Below, piece after piece: positions 10,865 through 20,769 of a DNA stretch of 64,000 nucleotides. This DNA comes from a phage: sequence record PZ509022.1. The stretch is one strand, 5' to 3'. The first letter of the stretch is position 1, and each line of letters starts with the position of its first letter. The notes beneath the pieces were generated by a model. That model was not told the DNA's origin. It searched no databases and was given only the letters and a program-made list of their open reading frames with translations. Both the position numbers and the translations under genes were made by a program.

Positions 10865-12678
10865 TGGTGTTTAACCCTATGCATGATTTCTTTATTTTTA
10901 CCGAGATTAAATCCGCGTTCGTTCGGATTTCCCAAATAACCACATGTTCTTCTTATTGTGTTCATCTTTTTAGGATCAGTTTCTCCACAAATAGAACAAA
11001 CAAATCCGTTTTCAGTAGGAGTCATTTCATGGGTACTTCCGCATGTAAAACATTTATCTACTGGCATATTAACACCAAAATAATCTAAATGTTGTGCAGC
11101 ATAATCCCATACGGCCTCAAGGCCTTTTAAGTTATTTTTCATATCAGGAAGTTCAACATAAGAAATGTGACCACCTGTCGCAATGAAATGATATGGCGCT
11201 TCACGAGAAATCTTTTCAAACGGAGTAATATTTTCTTCTACTGAAACATGGAAACTATTAGTGTACCAGCCTTTATCAGTAACATCCTTTACACTTCCAT
11301 ATTTCTCAGTATCAAGTTTACAGAAGCGATAGCACAGGTTTTCAGCAGGAGTAGAATACAAGCTAAAAGCAAAACCAGTTCTTTCAGTCCACTGCTTAAG
11401 ACGAGCATTCATTTTAGTTAAAATTTCTTGTCCAATATCACGACCGACAAGAATATTCAATTCGTGAATACCAATGTATCCTAGGGACACTGAACTTCTA
11501 CCGTTTTTAAATAACTCAATTATGTCGTCATCAGGTTTAAGACGAACCCCGAATGCACCTTCTTGGTAAAGAATAGGAGCAACAGTAGCTTTAACTCCTT
11601 TTAAGGAACTAATTCTACACATCAAAGCTTCAAAACATAAATCCATTCGTTCATTAAATAGCTCAACAAATTTCTGTTCATTGAATTGTGTTCCAATATA
11701 AGAATCTAACGCGATGCGAGGAAGATTCAGTGTTACAACACCAAGATTATTACGTCCATCAAGAATTTCATTACCAGTCGAATCTTTCCATACGCTCAAG
11801 AAACTACGGCAACCCATTGGAGAAACAGGAACAGATGAACCAGTGATAGCTTTATTGTTCTTAGCTGAAATAATATCAGGATACATCCTTTTGCTTGCAC
11901 ACTCTAGAGCAAGCTGCTTAATATCATAGTTCGGATCGTCTTTGTAAAGATTAACGCCTTCTTCGACGAACATAACAAGCTTAGGGAAAATAGGAGTTAT
12001 CCCATCACGACCGAGACCTTTAATACGATTTTTCAGAATTGCTTTCTGAATCATTCGTTCAGTCCAGTCAGTTCCCGTACCAAATGTAATTGTTACAAAA
12101 GGCGTTTGTCCGTTTGAACTAAAGAGAGTATTTACTTCATATTCATAAGCTTGGAATGCATCGTATACGTCTTTTTCTGTTTTAGATTGAGCATAATTCA
12201 ACGCATCAGCGATTTGCCATTTTTCTGCATCCTCAATATGTTTTGCATATGTGCGTTTAACATAAGGAGAAAGTACTTTATCTACATTAGCAAAAGTCGT
12301 TCCGCCGTATTGGTGAGAAGCAACCTGTGCAGTAATTTGTGCCATAATTGCAGTAGCAACGCCAATTGATTTAGGAGTTTCAATTTGAGCATTGCCTAAT
12401 TTAAATCCATTCTCAAGCATTCCTTTTAAATCTACTAAACAGCAATTAGTAAAAGGCAATGATATACTGTAATCTAAATCGTGAAAATGAATTAATCCGA
12501 CATTATGAGCATTTACAATATGGCTCGGAAGAATACTACAAGCGATATGTTTAGAAACAATACCGGCCATTAAATCTCTTTTTGTTGGAAAGACACGAGA
12601 ATCTTTGTTGGCATTTTCGGTATTTAATTCTTTATCTTTATTTGAAATAAAATTTAAAACATCTTTCTCTAAAGACAT
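10861..12678 (-). CDS. nrdD: Anaerobic ribonucleoside-triphosphate reductase NrdD, uninterrupted
   Basis: 605-aa continuous ORF with the C-terminal glycyl radical motif RRTCGYLG and zinc-ribbon cysteines; no intron-like interruption. Confidence 0.95.
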   Translation of the reverse strand: MSLEKDVLNFISNKDKELNTENANKDSRVFPTKRDLMAGIVSKHIACSILPSHIVNAHNVGLIHFHDLDYSISLPFTNCCLVDLKGMLENGFKLGNAQIETPKSIGVATAIMAQITAQVASHQYGGTTFANVDKVLSPYVKRTYAKHIEDAEKWQIADALNYAQSKTEKDVYDAFQAYEYEVNTLFSSNGQTPFVTITFGTGTDWTERMIQKAILKNRIKGLGRDGITPIFPKLVMFVEEGVNLYKDDPNYDIKQLALECASKRMYPDIISAKNNKAITGSSVPVSPMGCRSFLSVWKDSTGNEILDGRNNLGVVTLNLPRIALDSYIGTQFNEQKFVELFNERMDLCFEALMCRISSLKGVKATVAPILYQEGAFGVRLKPDDDIIELFKNGRSSVSLGYIGIHELNILVGRDIGQEILTKMNARLKQWTERTGFAFSLYSTPAENLCYRFCKLDTEKYGSVKDVTDKGWYTNSFHVSVEENITPFEKISREAPYHFIATGGHISYVELPDMKNNLKGLEAVWDYAAQHLDYFGVNMPVDKCFTCGSTHEMTPTENGFVCSICGETDPKKMNTIRRTCGYLGNPNERGFNLGKNKEIMHRVKHQ

Positions 12679-14819: not shown

Positions 14820-14998
14820 TTAGAAATAGACTTTTCACCGTTAGAATAATAAACTTCGAGTTTAGCACGATTATTTTTAATTTGAATAACCTTTGCTGTC
14901 ATCAAAGTTCCATACCCATAGTAAACTGCAACTTCATCACCTACATATACCGCGCTTCCGCGGTAATCGTGAATATAGTCAGTTCCTTCGAGCATCAT
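14783..14998 (-). CDS. Small hypothetical protein
   Basis: 71-aa ORF; start overlaps the nrdC stop. Confidence 0.5.
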   Translation of the reverse strand: MMLEGTDYIHDYRGSAVYVGDEVAVYYGYGTLMTAKVIQIKNNRAKLEVYYSNGEKSISKWKYGDCMVKLG

Positions 14999-15258
14999 TT
15001 AAAATATTCTCGCAGTTGGTCAAATCCACCAATATGACTTCCATCAGGAGCAAATACCTGAGGCATTGTCAAGCCGATTTGAGTATCACGACCTAGTTTA
15101 GTCAGAAGCTCAGCGATTTTCTCATCATCAAAAACACCTTTTTCCGGCATAATGTTGATAAATTCAAACGGCTGTTTCTTCACGGTCAAAAGACGTTTTG
15201 CATTATCGCAATACACACATTTATGGATGTTGCTATCATAACCATATACTTTAAACAT
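14995..15258 (-). CDS. nrdC: Thioredoxin/glutaredoxin NrdC
   Basis: 87-aa ORF with the CVYC active site; matches T4 thioredoxin. Confidence 0.9.
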   Translation of the reverse strand: MFKVYGYDSNIHKCVYCDNAKRLLTVKKQPFEFINIMPEKGVFDDEKIAELLTKLGRDTQIGLTMPQVFAPDGSHIGGFDQLREYFK

Positions 15259-15259
15259 A

Positions 15260-15502
15260 TTATTCCTTAATTCCTAGTACTTGTTTAAAAGTCTCGTCGT
15301 AATCAAGACTTTGGCCCGTTTGTTCTTTATGTTTGTATATAATATCACTTACTTCTGATAGCATATTTTTATATGAACGAGTTAAAGCAGATTTAAGCAC
15401 GCTGTATCTATCAGGAAATTTACCGTGTTCATTATAATAAGCTATTGCTAATTCACGGACTGCCTTTTCAGCAGTCTCCATATATTCTTTACGCTTGGCC
15501 AT
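15260..15502 (-). CDS. Small hypothetical protein
   Basis: ORF 15260-15661 trimmed to the Met of [13 protein letters not shown]...; the N-terminal extension overlaps the next gene. Confidence 0.45.
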
Positions 15503-15806
15503 TTTCTTCTCGGTCAAATCGGTGTTTACAATGGCGACATTTATAACGAAGATTACTAGTCTGCCAATGGACCAATTGCACCTGTTCAGTTCCACATTCA
15601 GGGCAATTAGGAACGTTTTTAGAAGCGCGTTCGCGGCGTTCAACCATAACCATAATGGCATACCAAGCAGGAGGTTTAAAATCTAAATCATCACAACCAT
15701 GAATCTTTCCGCGCATTTCCAGATCGTCTTCTTCACCAGCCATAATAATTTTAATTAGACTGGAATTACTTGAAGCTGCAATATCTTCTAATAGACGCTT
15801 TTTCAT
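15489..15806 (-). CDS. Small zinc-ribbon protein
   Basis: 105-aa ORF with CPECG...CRHCKH, a four-cysteine/histidine ribbon. Confidence 0.55.
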
Positions 15807-16732
15807 TTCAATACCTCAATAGCATTACGTAAACCATTTGCTTTTGCATTAAGAGCTTTTAACAATTTAGTGTGTTCGGCAATCTGAGCTTCAACTTCAA
15901 CTAGTCGAGATTTGAGGTATTCACGTTCTTCGCTCAAGTTATCAATCTTTTCTACTTTAGGCTCTTTTACAACTGTCTTATATGTATTAGGGTTCTTCAG
16001 TTTAATTAAAATGCGTGAACTGTATAACATTGAACCATTATCTTCGGTTTCGTCATACATTTCTACTACATCCATAATTTTTAACATCATGCGGAGTTTA
16101 TAAGACAACGAACGAATAGTTTTGTTGTGCTTATTAATTTCTTTAGCTGTCATGGTGCCGAGATTACGTGAGTAATAATAAGGAACCTGGATATTAATTA
16201 ATACTGATGAACCACCTGGCTTGTGTGTTACTTCATCAGCAATAACCCAATCTTTAACATGAACTTTATTTGTACGATTATCGCCACCTGTGAATAATTT
16301 ACAAGAATGTTTAAAAAGCATATTCACTTGGTTATTGAATTCACAAGCAAATTTATCAGCAAATTTAGTTTCAGGAATGGTAGATAACCAATCAGCTAAA
16401 TGAGTCTTTTTAACATCGTTAATAATAGTAAATTCAACCAAATCGGTTATAGATGTCGCAGTTTTAATGAAGCTCGGCTTCATAAAGTTTTTAATGTTAT
16501 CACGAGCTACAGTAGAAGATAACATACGAGAACGTTTGAACCATTGAAGCAACGTCCCTAACGAATGAGAATAAGCGTTTTGAGTATCTTTACAGATATG
16601 ATTTTCCTGGCCAACATATTGAAGGAAATCACGAAGAATATTATTGATTACTGCTCTGTGTCCGATCTGATAATTACGGTGTTTAGTAATAAGACTGTCA
16701 AAATAATCAATATAATGTTTACGAGTTTTCAT
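15803..16732 (-). CDS. Hypothetical protein, paralog family member 1 (globular N-domain plus C-terminal coiled coil)
   Basis: 309-aa ORF; begins MKTRKHY; C-terminal roughly 45 aa is heptad-like ([44 protein letters not shown]). Confidence 0.7.
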   Translation of the reverse strand: MKTRKHYIDYFDSLITKHRNYQIGHRAVINNILRDFLQYVGQENHICKDTQNAYSHSLGTLLQWFKRSRMLSSTVARDNIKNFMKPSFIKTATSITDLVEFTIINDVKKTHLADWLSTIPETKFADKFACEFNNQVNMLFKHSCKLFTGGDNRTNKVHVKDWVIADEVTHKPGGSSVLINIQVPYYYSRNLGTMTAKEINKHNKTIRSLSYKLRMMLKIMDVVEMYDETEDNGSMLYSSRILIKLKNPNTYKTVVKEPKVEKIDNLSEEREYLKSRLVEVEAQIAEHTKLLKALNAKANGLRNAIEVLK

Positions 16733-16784
16733 GTTCTTCTCACTTGGTTAATGATTTATACTCCGAGCCATCCTTGGCTTTAAA

Positions 16785-17786
16785 TTACTTAATTAACTGT
16801 AAAGCTTGTTCCAGACGATCAAGACGATTAACAGATTCTTCCCAAATCCTTTTAGCCTGCTCATATTCTTTCTGCGCTTTATTAGAAATTTCTAGAACTT
16901 CTTTATAAGCTTTTTCTAGTGCAATAACTTCTGGACGAATTTCTACCGGTTCAGGTGAATCGTCAAGACATTCCATTAGTTCCTCAAGGGTAGTTTCTTC
17001 TTTAGGAGTATTCACAATTTCATCACATTTTTGTTGGTAAATTTCTTTATCAGTAGGTGAATAAGCACATTTCACTTCACGAAGGCTAATTACGAGTTTA
17101 TATCCTTCCCAACCGCATATATTCTTAAAAGGATATGTATGAATATTTTCTACTGTTTCCATACAAAGTAATGCGGTCTCTAATTGACGAGTTATAGTGC
17201 TAGCAATTGAGAAAAATTTATTAATATTCTTTTGGTTAGTTTCTGGTGTAAAAAATCCATAATTCACAAAAATAGATACTTTATTTTTATCAAGTTCATA
17301 TTCTTTTATGATAATCATATCAGAAGCCAAAGGATGAATTTGACGATAATCGCCATAACATAATTTAGAAGCTGATTTTAGAATCTGTCCTTTGAAAAGT
17401 CTGAAATTACTAATCCAACGACGAGTAAAAATATTCTCAGGGTCTTCTTTATTATTAAGATGATAAGAATTAACATCACCGAACCAATTATATCCTACTA
17501 CATCTTTGGTTCGTTTAATTTCTTTCCCAAAATTACCAAGAATATCCCGATTAACCAAATATGAAAGAAGACGAGACTCTTTAAAGGTTTTCTTGATAAC
17601 ATCTTTATCTACACGACTAGAAATTTTACGAATTTCATGAATAAATTTAGTAGAAGAAACAATACTTGCATCAACACTATTGAGCCATTGATTGATAATA
17701 GAAAGAACGATATTTTGACCAAACATCGGTATAGCTTTATCATCAATAACGCTATTGAATGATTTGATATATTCGTTACGAGTCAT
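16785..17786 (-). CDS. Hypothetical protein, paralog family member 2
   Basis: Start placed at the Met of MTRNEY (17786): GAGGAG ribosome-binding site and an early promoter lie just upstream; C-terminal coiled coil. Confidence 0.65.
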   Translation of the reverse strand: MTRNEYIKSFNSVIDDKAIPMFGQNIVLSIINQWLNSVDASIVSSTKFIHEIRKISSRVDKDVIKKTFKESRLLSYLVNRDILGNFGKEIKRTKDVVGYNWFGDVNSYHLNNKEDPENIFTRRWISNFRLFKGQILKSASKLCYGDYRQIHPLASDMIIIKEYELDKNKVSIFVNYGFFTPETNQKNINKFFSIASTITRQLETALLCMETVENIHTYPFKNICGWEGYKLVISLREVKCAYSPTDKEIYQQKCDEIVNTPKEETTLEELMECLDDSPEPVEIRPEVIALEKAYKEVLEISNKAQKEYEQAKRIWEESVNRLDRLEQALQLIK

Positions 17787-17812
17787 ATTAATCTCCTCAG
17801 TAGAAAGTAAGA

Positions 17813-17846
17813 ACATTATACCACATCCTTGTGGCAAAGTAAACTA
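17813..17846 (-). promoter_or_regulatory. Sigma70-type early promoter (TTTACT, 17 bp, TATAAT) on the minus strand
   Basis: Plus strand shows gtaaac at 17839-17844 and attata at 17815-17820; overlaps the stop of the upstream paralog. Confidence 0.5.
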
Positions 17847-18869
17847 GTTCAGTGCATTTAGTGCATTGTTCAGTTTAGAACGTTGCTTTGTCAGATTTTG
17901 AACCCTTGACTGAGCTTGTTCTAACGCTTTTTCAGCTTCTAGCACTTCATTGGTCGCTTTAACGAGTTCATCATCTACTGCCTTAAGGGACTTCTCAATC
18001 GCATCCGCGTGCCATTTTTCAACAGGTTTAAGACTCGGATTTTCAATAGGAAGAAAATTCACTTTATTGAATTTCCATGCATCATTATTACCTGAACTAT
18101 ACATCCAAAATTTAGAATCGTTTGATGAGTAATTGGATAAATTTAAATTTAAGTTATCTTGCACTTCTTGCTTTTTCTCTTGCGGGACTTCGTCCTTTCT
18201 CAAAAATTCATATTTAAATGAAACAATCATATCAAGTTCATATGTTGTTGTATCTAACTTAAATCGTTCAAAACGAGGTAAAATCTTAGATTGAACAGCA
18301 GCAACAACATCCATATACTTAAATGCTTCTGTCAACTGTGATTTAAGGCATTCACAAATTGAAAGAGAATTTTTTGTATTAGGTTTAAAGCTAATTCGTG
18401 CAGTTCTATTATTTTCTTTTAACGGTCTTACTTCCATCTGAAGAGTATAACCATCAAATTTCAGATTCTTTAAGTTAATATCAGAACCTTTTAATCGACT
18501 AGCCGTAGACAAAATTTGCTTTAATTGTTTACGGAATAGAGCAATAAATCTCCATTCAAGACGATAATGATTTGGATTAAAAAATCCTGTTGATAAATCA
18601 ACCTTACTCTGACCAACGCCTTGAACAAATAGAGGATTTTTATAATCAATAGTTTTACAGAAATCGGTGAGCTGCTCACGAGCAGTCATTTGTGTAATAT
18701 ATCCCGCTTTACTAAAATGACGTAACCATTCACTGCTATTCATATACTTAAAGTGAATGGAACTATTAACTCTATCAGGGTCTAAATTATTTTGGCACAA
18801 AAATGTCATAACATTACGGGTATAGCTAGCATTACGAACCATATCTTCAATTTGAGAACGAGTTTTCAT
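17844..18869 (-). CDS. Hypothetical protein, paralog family member 3
   Basis: 341-aa ORF; begins MKTRSQ like member 1; shares the SLS...YMDVV block; C-terminal coiled coil. Confidence 0.7.
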   Translation of the reverse strand: MKTRSQIEDMVRNASYTRNVMTFLCQNNLDPDRVNSSIHFKYMNSSEWLRHFSKAGYITQMTAREQLTDFCKTIDYKNPLFVQGVGQSKVDLSTGFFNPNHYRLEWRFIALFRKQLKQILSTASRLKGSDINLKNLKFDGYTLQMEVRPLKENNRTARISFKPNTKNSLSICECLKSQLTEAFKYMDVVAAVQSKILPRFERFKLDTTTYELDMIVSFKYEFLRKDEVPQEKKQEVQDNLNLNLSNYSSNDSKFWMYSSGNNDAWKFNKVNFLPIENPSLKPVEKWHADAIEKSLKAVDDELVKATNEVLEAEKALEQAQSRVQNLTKQRSKLNNALNALN

Positions 18870-18877
18870 GGTGTTCC

Positions 18878-19786
18878 TTAAGATTTAAGTAAATCAACGA
18901 TTTTAATTAATTTTTCACGCTCAGATTTAGCTTTACTACTCAATCCAGATAGTCTGAAAATTTCATCATCATATTGCTGAATAGAAATATTTAGCTCTTC
19001 AATCTGCTTATTAAAATAAGCAATTTGTTCAGAATGTTTTTCATTACTGCGAACTGGTACAGGTTTTGTAGGTAATTTAGTTGAACTGGATTCATCTGGG
19101 CGATAAATTAAAATGCAATTTGAACCAATCGGACATTTAGCACCAGACACATATTCTAATATTCCGGCTTCTTTTAAAACTTCAAAAGCTAAACAGAGAT
19201 GATGCCCCATATTAACATAATCTGTAGAGCGAGCTCTGATGTAATAATCATCTCCACGAGTACTAAATTTAAAGCATTTAAGGTCTTCTGTATTATTGGT
19301 CTTAAAAATCATTTGTTTATCTAGACCTTTAGCTAATCGAGCGCCTAATGCTAATAATCGTCTTTGATTTTCCCACAAATCTGCGATCATTTGGTCAAAT
19401 GATAATTTCGGCATTAGTCGACCATAAAGGTCGTATCCTTTATTATAATTGCGAAGGATTTCACTCGCATTAATACGAGACAATGCTCCAATTTTATTAA
19501 GGGCTTTCATAATGCGATTAGATAAACCCATTCCAGACCCGTTTGTTCGCTGCAAATGTTTTTCTAATCCAAATCCAATATCAACTTTAAACTTATCTAA
19601 AATTTCTGCATGAACATCTCTGTCAATAACATTCAAATCCAAAGTTGGGTTAAATCTATGAAAAAATTTATCTGGCTCTCCACGACGAAGTACAGTCCAT
19701 TCATTTGATTTTTTATTAACTAAAGATTTAATTACTGCATTGACATTATTAATTACTACTGACATATTTTCCTCACTCAATTTCAA
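18878..19786 (-). CDS. Hypothetical protein, paralog family member 4
   Basis: 302-aa ORF; C-terminal coiled coil (QIEELNISIQQYDDEIFRLSGLSSKAKSEREKLIKIVDLLKS). Confidence 0.65.
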   Translation of the reverse strand: MKLSEENMSVVINNVNAVIKSLVNKKSNEWTVLRRGEPDKFFHRFNPTLDLNVIDRDVHAEILDKFKVDIGFGLEKHLQRTNGSGMGLSNRIMKALNKIGALSRINASEILRNYNKGYDLYGRLMPKLSFDQMIADLWENQRRLLALGARLAKGLDKQMIFKTNNTEDLKCFKFSTRGDDYYIRARSTDYVNMGHHLCLAFEVLKEAGILEYVSGAKCPIGSNCILIYRPDESSSTKLPTKPVPVRSNEKHSEQIAYFNKQIEELNISIQQYDDEIFRLSGLSSKAKSEREKLIKIVDLLKS

Positions 19787-20186: not shown

Positions 20187-20241
20187 AATAATCTCAATTA
20201 AAAGGGCTTAGAACCATTATACCATCCTTGGTATAAAGCGG

Positions 20242-20769
20242 TTATGCGAGTACCGTCTTTAACCGTTCTTCAAACTTCCGAAGAGTATTTTGGCGTTCAG
20301 CTCTTTGCTTTTTGTAAGTTTCAATACGCTCTGAAATGAGAGTGTATCGTTCATTTACTGATTCTTTCATAAAATCAGGAATTTCACGAGAAGCTTTAAT
20401 CTCATCAAATTTATCAATAACAGCTTGCTCTTCAGCAATTAAGTTATCATACATCAAAATATCTTTCTTGATGAACTCAATATCTTCTTGAGTTACACGA
20501 GATAATTTAGATGCTTTATCCTTTTTGTACTGTTCGTTAGTATCACGAGACCAGTGCAATGTACGATTTTTATTCGTATTTTTGTAAATTTCTACAATAC
20601 CAATCTCATCGATAATAACGATCCAATTCCAACGAGATTTGTAAATTTGTCCTCCGTCAACCGTGATTTCACCTCCGATTGAGATGTCATTAAAGAACTT
20701 ACTTTGTGCTTCAGATTTAAATTTACCATCGTTGTAATTTACCAGGTTGAAAATATCTTTAGCGTTCAT
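20242..20769 (-). CDS. Hypothetical protein
   Basis: 175-aa ORF with upstream early promoter and GGAGG ribosome-binding site. Confidence 0.6.
   Translation of the reverse strand: MNAKDIFNLVNYNDGKFKSEAQSKFFNDISIGGEITVDGGQIYKSRWNWIVIIDEIGIVEIYKNTNKNRTLHWSRDTNEQYKKDKASKLSRVTQEDIEFIKKDILMYDNLIAEEQAVIDKFDEIKASREIPDFMKESVNERYTLISERIETYKKQRAERQNTLRKFEERLKTVLA

Follow-up and report, generated by a model that had tools for sequence, protein, structure and literature searches.

This study concerns a row of four genes in a 64,000-nucleotide stretch of phage DNA (sequence record PZ509022.1), called the window below. These four consecutive minus-strand open reading frames (ORFs) are the orthologues of nrdC.3, nrdC.4, nrdC.5 and nrdC.6 of phage T4, as established against the annotated records of Escherichia phage slur03 and of T4. 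Profile comparisons bring them together in one superfamily with variable heads and a helical tail that closes on a common motif. On sequence grounds the paralogy of nrdC.3, nrdC.4 and nrdC.5 is firm; nrdC.6 is the most diverged member and is joined to the others only transitively. The genes themselves and the function of nrdC.5 were already known: in the sections of Srikant et al. (2022, eLife, PMC9391042) that deal with it, T4 nrdC.5 is a counter-defence gene against the sirtuin system Dsr1. New here are the joining of the four genes into one coiled-coil-tailed superfamily, the account of how it has expanded and how its alleles turn over, and the standing of nrdC.3, nrdC.4 and nrdC.6 as counter-defence candidates. 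The family relationship appears to be unreported; a full-text search on the gene names and Pfam accessions returned no description of it. We think it probable that the family consists of early-expressed, dispensable counter-defence proteins that act on host range.

Over its 3,984 bases the interval is 97.5% identical to slur03, and 657 phage records match it; by its sequence, the window is a segment of a Tequatrovirus genome. The array is flanked by nrdC.2 and nrdC.7 and spans 15803-19765 after correction of two starts. The nrdC.4 frame begins at the ATG at 17786, which has GAGGAG ahead of it, and not at the TTG at 17837. That of nrdC.6 begins at the ATG at 19765, behind a GAGG that overlaps the nrdC.7 stop codon, and not at the TTG at 19786; the slur03 annotation agrees. 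A sequence-only reading of the window had picked out these four consecutive minus-strand ORFs and guessed that they were nrdC.x genes of the T-even phages, which is right. Its lengths for the first three (309, about 333 and 341 residues) also stand, and the fourth is shortened from 302 to 295 residues by the ATG start. The four genes are as follows.

15803-16732, minus strand: nrdC.3 orthologue, 309 residues, PHROG 1435, a Tequatrovirus-specific duplicate of nrdC.4
16785-17786, minus strand: nrdC.4 orthologue, 333 residues, PHROG 1435, close homologues carry PF26897
17844-18869, minus strand: nrdC.5 orthologue, 341 residues, Pfam DUF7235 (PF23882), orthologue of the published T4 anti-Dsr1 gene
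18878-19765, minus strand: nrdC.6 orthologue, 295 residues, PHROG 2257, homologues carry PF26899, the most diverged member

The identity of nrdC.5 is direct. It matches PF23882 over its full length with 399.3 bits against a cut-off of 30, is 94.5% identical to a T4 record, and lies in the same slot between nrdC.6 and nrdC.4. The gathering score of PF23882 is not reached by nrdC.3, nrdC.4 or nrdC.6, and two of 17 relatives of nrdC.3 and nrdC.4 match it at E ~0.15. The curated families that hold the four proteins are DUF7235 (PF23882), PF26897 and PF26899 in Pfam and PHROGs 1435, 2351 and 2257. Curated databases thus treat the four genes as three unrelated families, with function unassigned there.

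Kinship of the four genes

An all-versus-all comparison, which the sequence-only reading had proposed as a check, supports a single pair by BLASTP, nrdC.3 with nrdC.4 (26% identity over 231 residues, E 5e-7). Profile methods were therefore needed for the other pairs, and the profiles were enlarged with divergent orthologues from other T4-like genera before they were compared. In hhalign the nrdC.3 and nrdC.4 profiles align with 98% probability (E 3e-14, score about 100), nrdC.3 and nrdC.5 with 86% (P 5e-6, 231 columns), and nrdC.4 and nrdC.5 with 89.5% (P 2e-6, 232 columns). Column-shuffled and reversed controls give scores of 14-17 +/- 2-3, and the similarity among the three lies above the column-shuffle nulls. 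When the nrdC.5 family is compared with nrdC.3 and nrdC.4 together, the probability is 95.9% (E 5e-9, 166 columns). PHROG 1435 independently holds both nrdC.3 and nrdC.4 in one family.

The alignments are anchored by the same features throughout. An internal block, SLS..L....MDVV, runs in register across nrdC.3, nrdC.4 and nrdC.5, and in the AlphaFold2 model of nrdC.5 it forms the helix of a beta-beta-alpha-beta-beta unit. MKTR or MTR N-termini are common to the three, with T3 and R4 invariant. Two motifs of the head, K-x-G-x-L-S...A...L..F-x-K and L..A-x-R-L, come into register each time. The proposal from sequence alone had been a tandem array of paralogues in an early accessory region, their heads diverged and their tails conserved, with an internal block common to the first three members and an MKTR start in the first and third. 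The profile comparisons bear out the array, the block is confirmed by its in-register alignment, and to the two MKTR starts can be added the MTR start of nrdC.4.

The membership of nrdC.6 required a longer argument. BLASTP finds nothing linking it to the other three, and its direct profile comparisons are weak (P 0.009-0.04), with probabilities of 4.4% and 1.2%. It is also kept as a separate family in Pfam and in the PHROGs, and coiled coils are known to produce compositional matches. It could therefore be proposed that nrdC.6 is an unrelated ORFan that stands beside a three-member family and has come by a similar coiled-coil tail through convergence or tail exchange. We consider this decidedly unlikely. 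The hhalign scores of nrdC.6 against nrdC.3 and nrdC.5 exceed those of all column shuffles and the alignments are colinear; against nrdC.4 the excess is marginal (20.8 versus a shuffle maximum of 20.1). When the nrdC.6 profile is run against 88 ORFs of the window, its best match other than itself is nrdC.4. The two head motifs are shared by nrdC.6 and the paralogues in every alignment.

Further evidence against an unrelated nrdC.6 comes from Pectobacterium phage PM2. Gene PM2_092 (309 residues) lies directly upstream of a gene similar to nrdC.2, which is the slot of nrdC.3. It matches the nrdC.6 profile with 26.1 bits over profile positions 25-249, that is, over nearly the full length and not in the tail alone, and it matches the nrdC.5 profile with 22.1 bits in both head and tail. 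Across a set of 300 shuffles, the maxima were 6.1 bits for nrdC.6 and 8.6 bits for nrdC.5. The structural comparison points the same way. In a Foldseek search of BFVD, the nrdC.6 model finds a 309-residue PM2 protein (E 1.3e-7, template modelling score 0.52), an entry that we equate with PM2_092 by phage and length. The same search returns uncharacterised proteins of 300-375 residues from many T4-like genera at 11-17% identity and a Foldseek probability of 1.0. The order of structural elements (helix, two strands, helix, two strands, linker, tail) is identical in the nrdC.6 model and the usable part of the nrdC.5 model. We count nrdC.6 as a member because of the PM2_092 bridge and this matching fold topology. 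Gene 91 of phage Merlin was considered as a second bridge and set aside; its E values range from 4e-7 to 0.06 depending on the profile. Since that sequence link is weak, the bridge claim rests on PM2_092.

Heads, tails and predicted architecture

The four proteins are predicted to follow a common plan: first a helical N-terminal domain of basic character, then a small beta-beta-alpha-beta-beta unit and a disordered linker, and last a coiled-coil or helical-hairpin tail. AlphaFold2 models cover nrdC.5 and nrdC.6, and both begin with a long helix ahead of the strands. The nrdC.6 model has a mean predicted local distance difference test score (pLDDT) of 79.6 and a predicted template modelling score of 0.66. 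That of nrdC.5, built on a shallow alignment, has a pLDDT of 49.7 and is usable for the middle and the tail only. Its BFVD matches, which include tail-terminator and tail-completion proteins at E ~1e-2, were not trusted and were not used. The N-terminal domains carry net charges of +5 to +9, and the isoelectric point (pI) of the whole protein is 9.3-9.5 in three of the four. The parts placed on the window are the following.

15806-15946, minus strand: nrdC.3 heptad tail, residues 263-309
16788-16931, minus strand: nrdC.4 heptad tail, residues 286-333, ending RLEQALQLIK
17847-18026, minus strand: nrdC.5 heptad tail, residues 282-341, ending KLNNALNALN, modelled as one long helix
18881-19042, minus strand: nrdC.6 tail, residues 242-295, ending KLIKIVDLLKS, modelled as a helical hairpin
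18216-18449, minus strand: nrdC.5 beta-beta-alpha-beta-beta unit, residues 141-218, holding the shared helix block SLSICECLKSQLTEAFKYMDVV, pLDDT 55-74
19103-19273, minus strand: nrdC.6 beta-beta-alpha-beta-beta unit, residues 165-221, elements ordered as in nrdC.5

One unbroken heptad register runs over the last 45-58 residues of all four proteins, with no proline and at most one glycine. The heptad scores lie above those of 97.5-100% of whole-protein shuffles (p <= 0.025), and each tail has at least four to five uninterrupted heptads with a hydrophobic a/d core and is predicted to be helical. In the models, the tails of nrdC.5 and nrdC.6 are helical with block-mean pLDDT of ~71-93; that of nrdC.5 is a single helix at residues 282-340 (pLDDT 77-91), and that of nrdC.6 folds as a hairpin of residues 242-271 plus 277-294. 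The heptad-like charged segment that had been noticed at the end of each ORF is thus real, both in the coiled-coil prediction for the four and in the structure prediction for the two. Its description as a conserved coiled coil holds for motif and helical character. All four tails, and those of relatives in other genera, close on the motif [KR]-L-x-x-A-[ILV]-x-x-L-K in a C-terminus-anchored alignment, and helical character is kept, but strong sequence identity between paralogues is not. Among 531 stop-to-stop ORFs of the window, the strict motif occurs in nrdC.3, nrdC.5 and nrdC.6 only; the nrdC.4 copy here is one residue off (I for L). When diverged alleles are compared, conservation is highest in the tail and lowest in the strand region. 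The heptads suggest that the tail may serve as an oligomerisation domain.

The neighbouring gene nrdC.8 (20242-20769, minus strand, 175 residues) also has a heptad segment of ~40 residues at its end. It was considered as a further member and rejected, having neither profile similarity to the four-gene family nor the terminal motif.

Searches of the four proteins against Pfam, NCBIfam and PADLOC gave no functional domain and nothing tying nrdC.3, nrdC.4 or nrdC.6 to defence. Profile searches against the sequences of the PDB gave nothing meaningful, with no match to a known domain or solved structure. A tyrosine-recombinase SAM-like domain (PF02899) was suggested for nrdC.3 at E 0.1, with 13.3 bits against 22.3, as was NF001399 at E 0.003; the integrase SAM-like domain was rejected because only one of 17 relatives matches it.

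Many GenBank records label nrdC.3 to nrdC.6 "thioredoxin". No CxxC is present in any of the four sequences, and thioredoxin and glutaredoxin families are absent among their Pfam and NCBIfam matches at E <= 1. The name was apparently taken over from the nrdC.x locus names; NrdC proper is encoded by the 87-residue ORF at 14995-15258. One record calls nrdC.5 a "tail sheath stabilizer and completion protein", and one calls a neighbour "Mur ligase domain-containing", neither with support in the domain searches. All three labels look like propagated naming errors.

Distribution, allele turnover and promoter-like elements

As far as sequence searches reach, the family is confined to T4-like phages. 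An exhaustive profile search with nrdC.5 through 1.84 billion representative proteins returned 13 clusters and no distant relatives. The phage records matched by tblastn number 654 for nrdC.3, 554 for nrdC.4 and 582 for nrdC.5, and the nrdC.3 records are all of T4-like coliphage type. T4-like loci outside Tequatrovirus (L010-L018, from genomes of 155-172 kb) carry a conserved nrdC.6-5-4 cassette. The nrdC.3 gene is an extra duplicate of nrdC.4 found in Tequatrovirus only. Moonvirus (Merlin) and Mosugukvirus (PM2) each show a single member in the stretches that were examined. A conserved protein of ~261 residues (MLTEII...) adjoins that single member, as Merlin gene 92 (L019 11256-12044) and as PM2_095 (L022 8500-9285); it has no counterpart in the array of the window.

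Within Tequatrovirus, the slots can hold strongly diverged alleles. The nrdC.3 alleles fall by tblastn into three classes, at ~93%, 78% and 61% identity. Phages of JK45 type lack nrdC.4 and nrdC.7, and the alleles in their remaining slots are 25% (nrdC.5) and 33-36% (nrdC.6) identical to those of the window. The comparison across T-even relatives that had been proposed as a check therefore finds presence that is not uniform, with nrdC.4 absent from the JK45 type and nrdC.3 limited to Tequatrovirus. Within an allele class, the ratio of nonsynonymous to synonymous substitution rates (dN/dS) is 0.15 for nrdC.3, 0.19 for nrdC.4, 0.20 for nrdC.5 and 0.12 for nrdC.6, as compared to 0.05 for nrdC. 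Constraint is greatest in the tails, at 0.02 to 0.15, and no gene-wide positive selection was found in tests within an allele class. Since selection is purifying, the genes are functional, and their diversity arises by replacement and recombination and not by current positive selection. The diversifying heads of the sequence-only reading are accordingly right as to deep allele replacement, down to 25-36% identity between slot alleles in one genus, but not as to ongoing positive selection.

The array genes are dispensable, as natural deletions, frameshifts, chimeras and replacements attest. In phage ACG-C40 (L005 6805-7216) a deletion joins the nrdC.5 N-terminus to the nrdC.3 C-terminus, and P0056 is a 299-residue chimera of nrdC.5 and nrdC.3 with the junction ...KVN|MLFKH. 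A frameshift splits nrdC.4 in L009 / phage G8 (8950-9982 of L009). Phage Ec_YwIITB1 (L020 3938-4779) has a fragmented, frameshifted nrdC.5, and what appeared there as partial matches comes from that gene. The T4 reference itself (NC_000866; L002 ~11997-12100; window 18878-19085) has a one-nucleotide deletion in nrdC.6, reading gagct-gatattt where the window has gagctaaatattt. The annotated T4 protein is 275 residues long and without the coiled-coil tail, and the downstream frame still encodes the tail intact. We regard this deletion as a very recent laboratory mutation or a sequencing error. Finally, P0230 (173 residues), one of the hits of the nrdC.5 profile search, has an unrelated head of 118 residues on a tail near-identical to that of nrdC.5. 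The head is encoded in no phage record, and P0230 may be a rare recombinant or an assembly chimera.

Spacers within and next to the array contain repeated elements that resemble early promoters with a short stem.

17815-17843, minus strand: early-promoter-like site TTTACT-N17-TATAAT, TG-extended, with internal stem CCACA/TGTGG, in the nrdC.5/nrdC.4 spacer
16733-16784, minus strand: related element in the nrdC.4/nrdC.3 spacer, from spacer comparison
20187-20241, minus strand: related element upstream of nrdC.7, from spacer comparison

The three spacers (17787-17843, 16733-16784 and 20187-20241) share CCA(C)AAGGATG(T)GG followed by TATAAT or TATAAA. For the spacers ahead of nrdC.4 and nrdC.7 the score is 40, where the null gives 16 +/- 3. 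The modules that the elements bracket, nrdC.4 and nrdC.7, are missing in JK45-type phages. A further early-promoter-like site lies upstream of nrdC.8. In T4-like phages, promoter early stem-loop (PeSL) cassettes mediate modular shuffling in the hyperplastic regions, and the promoter consensus for the T4/PST pair is TTTACW-N17-TAYWAT (Comeau, Arbiol & Krisch 2014, PMC4122927). The site in the nrdC.5/nrdC.4 spacer fits that form, and related promoter-like elements with a short stem, CCAAGGATGG...TATAAT, precede nrdC.7, nrdC.4 and nrdC.3. The difference is that the stem is within the promoter spacer here and upstream of the promoter in a PeSL. The resemblance is one of sequence.

Directly downstream of nrdC.3 lies nrdC.2 (15489-15806, minus strand), which has a zinc-ribbon-like pattern CPECG ... 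CRHCKH. It adjoins the last family member across T4-like phages, PM2 included, where PM2_091 is beside PM2_092.

Probable counter-defence role and the competing explanations

The biological lead comes from nrdC.5. In the parts of Srikant et al. (PMC9391042) concerned with it, a T4 deletion mutant does not plate on strain ECOR17 or on MG1655 carrying ECOR17 dsr1, and plasmid-borne nrdC.5 rescues it. Those parts treat nrdC.5 as a single uncharacterised early gene and describe no paralogy, coiled-coil tail or mechanism. In the literature searched, we found neither later mechanistic work on nrdC.5 nor a reported function for nrdC.3, nrdC.4 or nrdC.6, and DSR1 is still called poorly characterised in a 2026 paper. 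A 2026 preprint (PMC12803255) reports that the TPR sensor domain of Dsr1 recognises the phage major capsid protein.

We propose that the variable head, comprising the basic helical domain and the beta-beta-alpha-beta-beta unit, would bind an immune sensor of the host, for example the TPR sensor of Dsr1, ahead of its triggering by late phage proteins. Through its conserved tail the protein would be kept in an oligomer or attached to a common partner. The other three proteins would act likewise against other host systems, each paralogue or allele having its own target. A sensor-blocking mode is plausible because the Dsr1 sensor is reported to recognise the major capsid protein (PMC12803255), and early timing is suggested by the early-promoter-like sites upstream of nrdC.4 and nrdC.8. 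For nrdC.3, nrdC.4 and nrdC.6, an anti-defence role is suggested by paralogy, dispensability and allele turnover. The sequence-only reading had expected host-takeover or anti-defence effectors. Anti-defence is substantiated for nrdC.5, by the T4 plating rescue on Dsr1 cells in those parts of PMC9391042 and the ~94% identity of the window copy, and is extended to the other three by inference. Nothing in the analysis supports host takeover.

Several observations weigh against a counter-defence family. The effect of nrdC.5 on Dsr1 could be indirect, binding of NrdC.5 to Dsr1 being a proposal. Oligomerisation is a prediction from the heptads, and the nrdC.6 tail is modelled as an intramolecular hairpin. 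The nrdC.5 model is poor, the direct profile scores of nrdC.6 are weak, and the domain searches tie none of nrdC.3, nrdC.4 and nrdC.6 to defence. Nucleic-acid binding would suit the basic heads as well. Several genera keep the nrdC.6-5-4 cassette under purifying selection, which need not be so for a pure arms-race set.

An alternative is that the family serves phage physiology, by binding nucleic acid or the nucleoid, by influencing early or middle expression, or as a scaffold near the nucleotide-synthesis genes, with the anti-Dsr1 effect being indirect. The charge and pI of the N-terminal domains would suit such a role, as would the position of the array amid nrd and nucleotide-metabolism genes, the retention of the three-gene cassette in several genera, and purifying selection on the genes. 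However, the genes are dispensable, being deleted, frameshifted or replaced in natural isolates, and between genera they diverge past BLAST detection. No nucleic-acid-binding domain was detected, apart from the weak integrase SAM-like match in one of 17 members, and the phenotype published for nrdC.5 depends on the defence system, as the relevant sections of PMC9391042 have it. We therefore consider a physiological role unlikely. If it were correct, the genes would still represent a widespread, uncharacterised fold of T4-like phages.

A different possibility is that the four proteins act jointly, their similar tails forming one hetero-oligomer or docking on one common partner. The four tails close on one terminal motif, as do those of distant relatives; constraint, both within and between alleles, is highest in the tail; and the genes lie next to each other, with partial co-transcription or translational coupling. 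But plasmid-borne nrdC.5 alone rescues the deletion mutant on Dsr1 cells, according to the same sections of PMC9391042, and many phages have only one or three members. We think joint action unlikely, although in itself it is compatible with counter-defence. A more specific version, to which we likewise give little weight, is that the tail is a common docking or assembly module that plugs paralogues and circulating head alleles into a multi-headed complex or a shared partner. If so, the array would be a modular "anti-immune hub": the head of nrdC.5 would block Dsr1 and every other head a host sensor of its own, and phages would gain new specificities by exchange of the head cassettes that lie between the conserved tail and the repeated promoter/stem-loop elements.

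Of all virulent phages T4 has been studied best, yet for most of its early accessory genes no function has been assigned. Since nrdC.5 belongs to a tandemly expanded, fast-evolving family with a common tail, three T4 ORFs that were anonymous until now become specific counter-defence candidates, together with the very divergent alleles of these ORFs in hundreds of coliphages of therapeutic type. For NrdC.5 the comparison supplies a domain map, in which the variable head is the likely specificity surface and the conserved tail the likely assembly module. It also predicts that the allele type at these slots contributes to differences in host range among near-identical T4-like phages.

Two known systems offer parallels to the proposed counter-defence family. 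The T-even internal-protein (IP) locus combines a conserved short targeting sequence with interchangeable bodies and is cited as a shuffling hotspot (PMC4122927), and IPI and IPIII are described as counter-defence proteins in the portion of PMC9391042 that mentions them. Like the array, it is a polymorphic host-range locus with a small conserved module on highly variable, dispensable bodies. The module of the array is a C-terminal coiled coil of ~50 residues, whereas that of the IP proteins is an N-terminal capsid-targeting peptide. The IP targeting consensus is MKTYQEFIAE, with cleavage after Glu10. A capsid-targeting reading of the MKTR N-termini was tried and rejected: MKTRKHYIDY, MTRNEYIKSF and MKTRSQIEDM share only M-K-T with it and have no [LI]-x-E at residues 8-10.

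The other parallel is DSAD1, which the accounts drawn on here present as a phage inhibitor of the sirtuin defence DSR2, reported to act against DSR2 activation by a structural phage protein. The likeness is that of a phage protein countering a SIR2-type, NAD+-depleting defence, and the same mode is what we propose for NrdC.5 against Dsr1. No sequence or fold similarity of DSAD1 to the four proteins was found. As a separate observation, Acinetobacter phage Acj9 (L021 1-1345) has adjacent genes annotated as nicotinate phosphoribosyltransferase and PRPP synthetase. They are unrelated to anything in the window, and the pair recalls the phage NAD+-reconstitution pathways of counter-defence mentioned in the literature.

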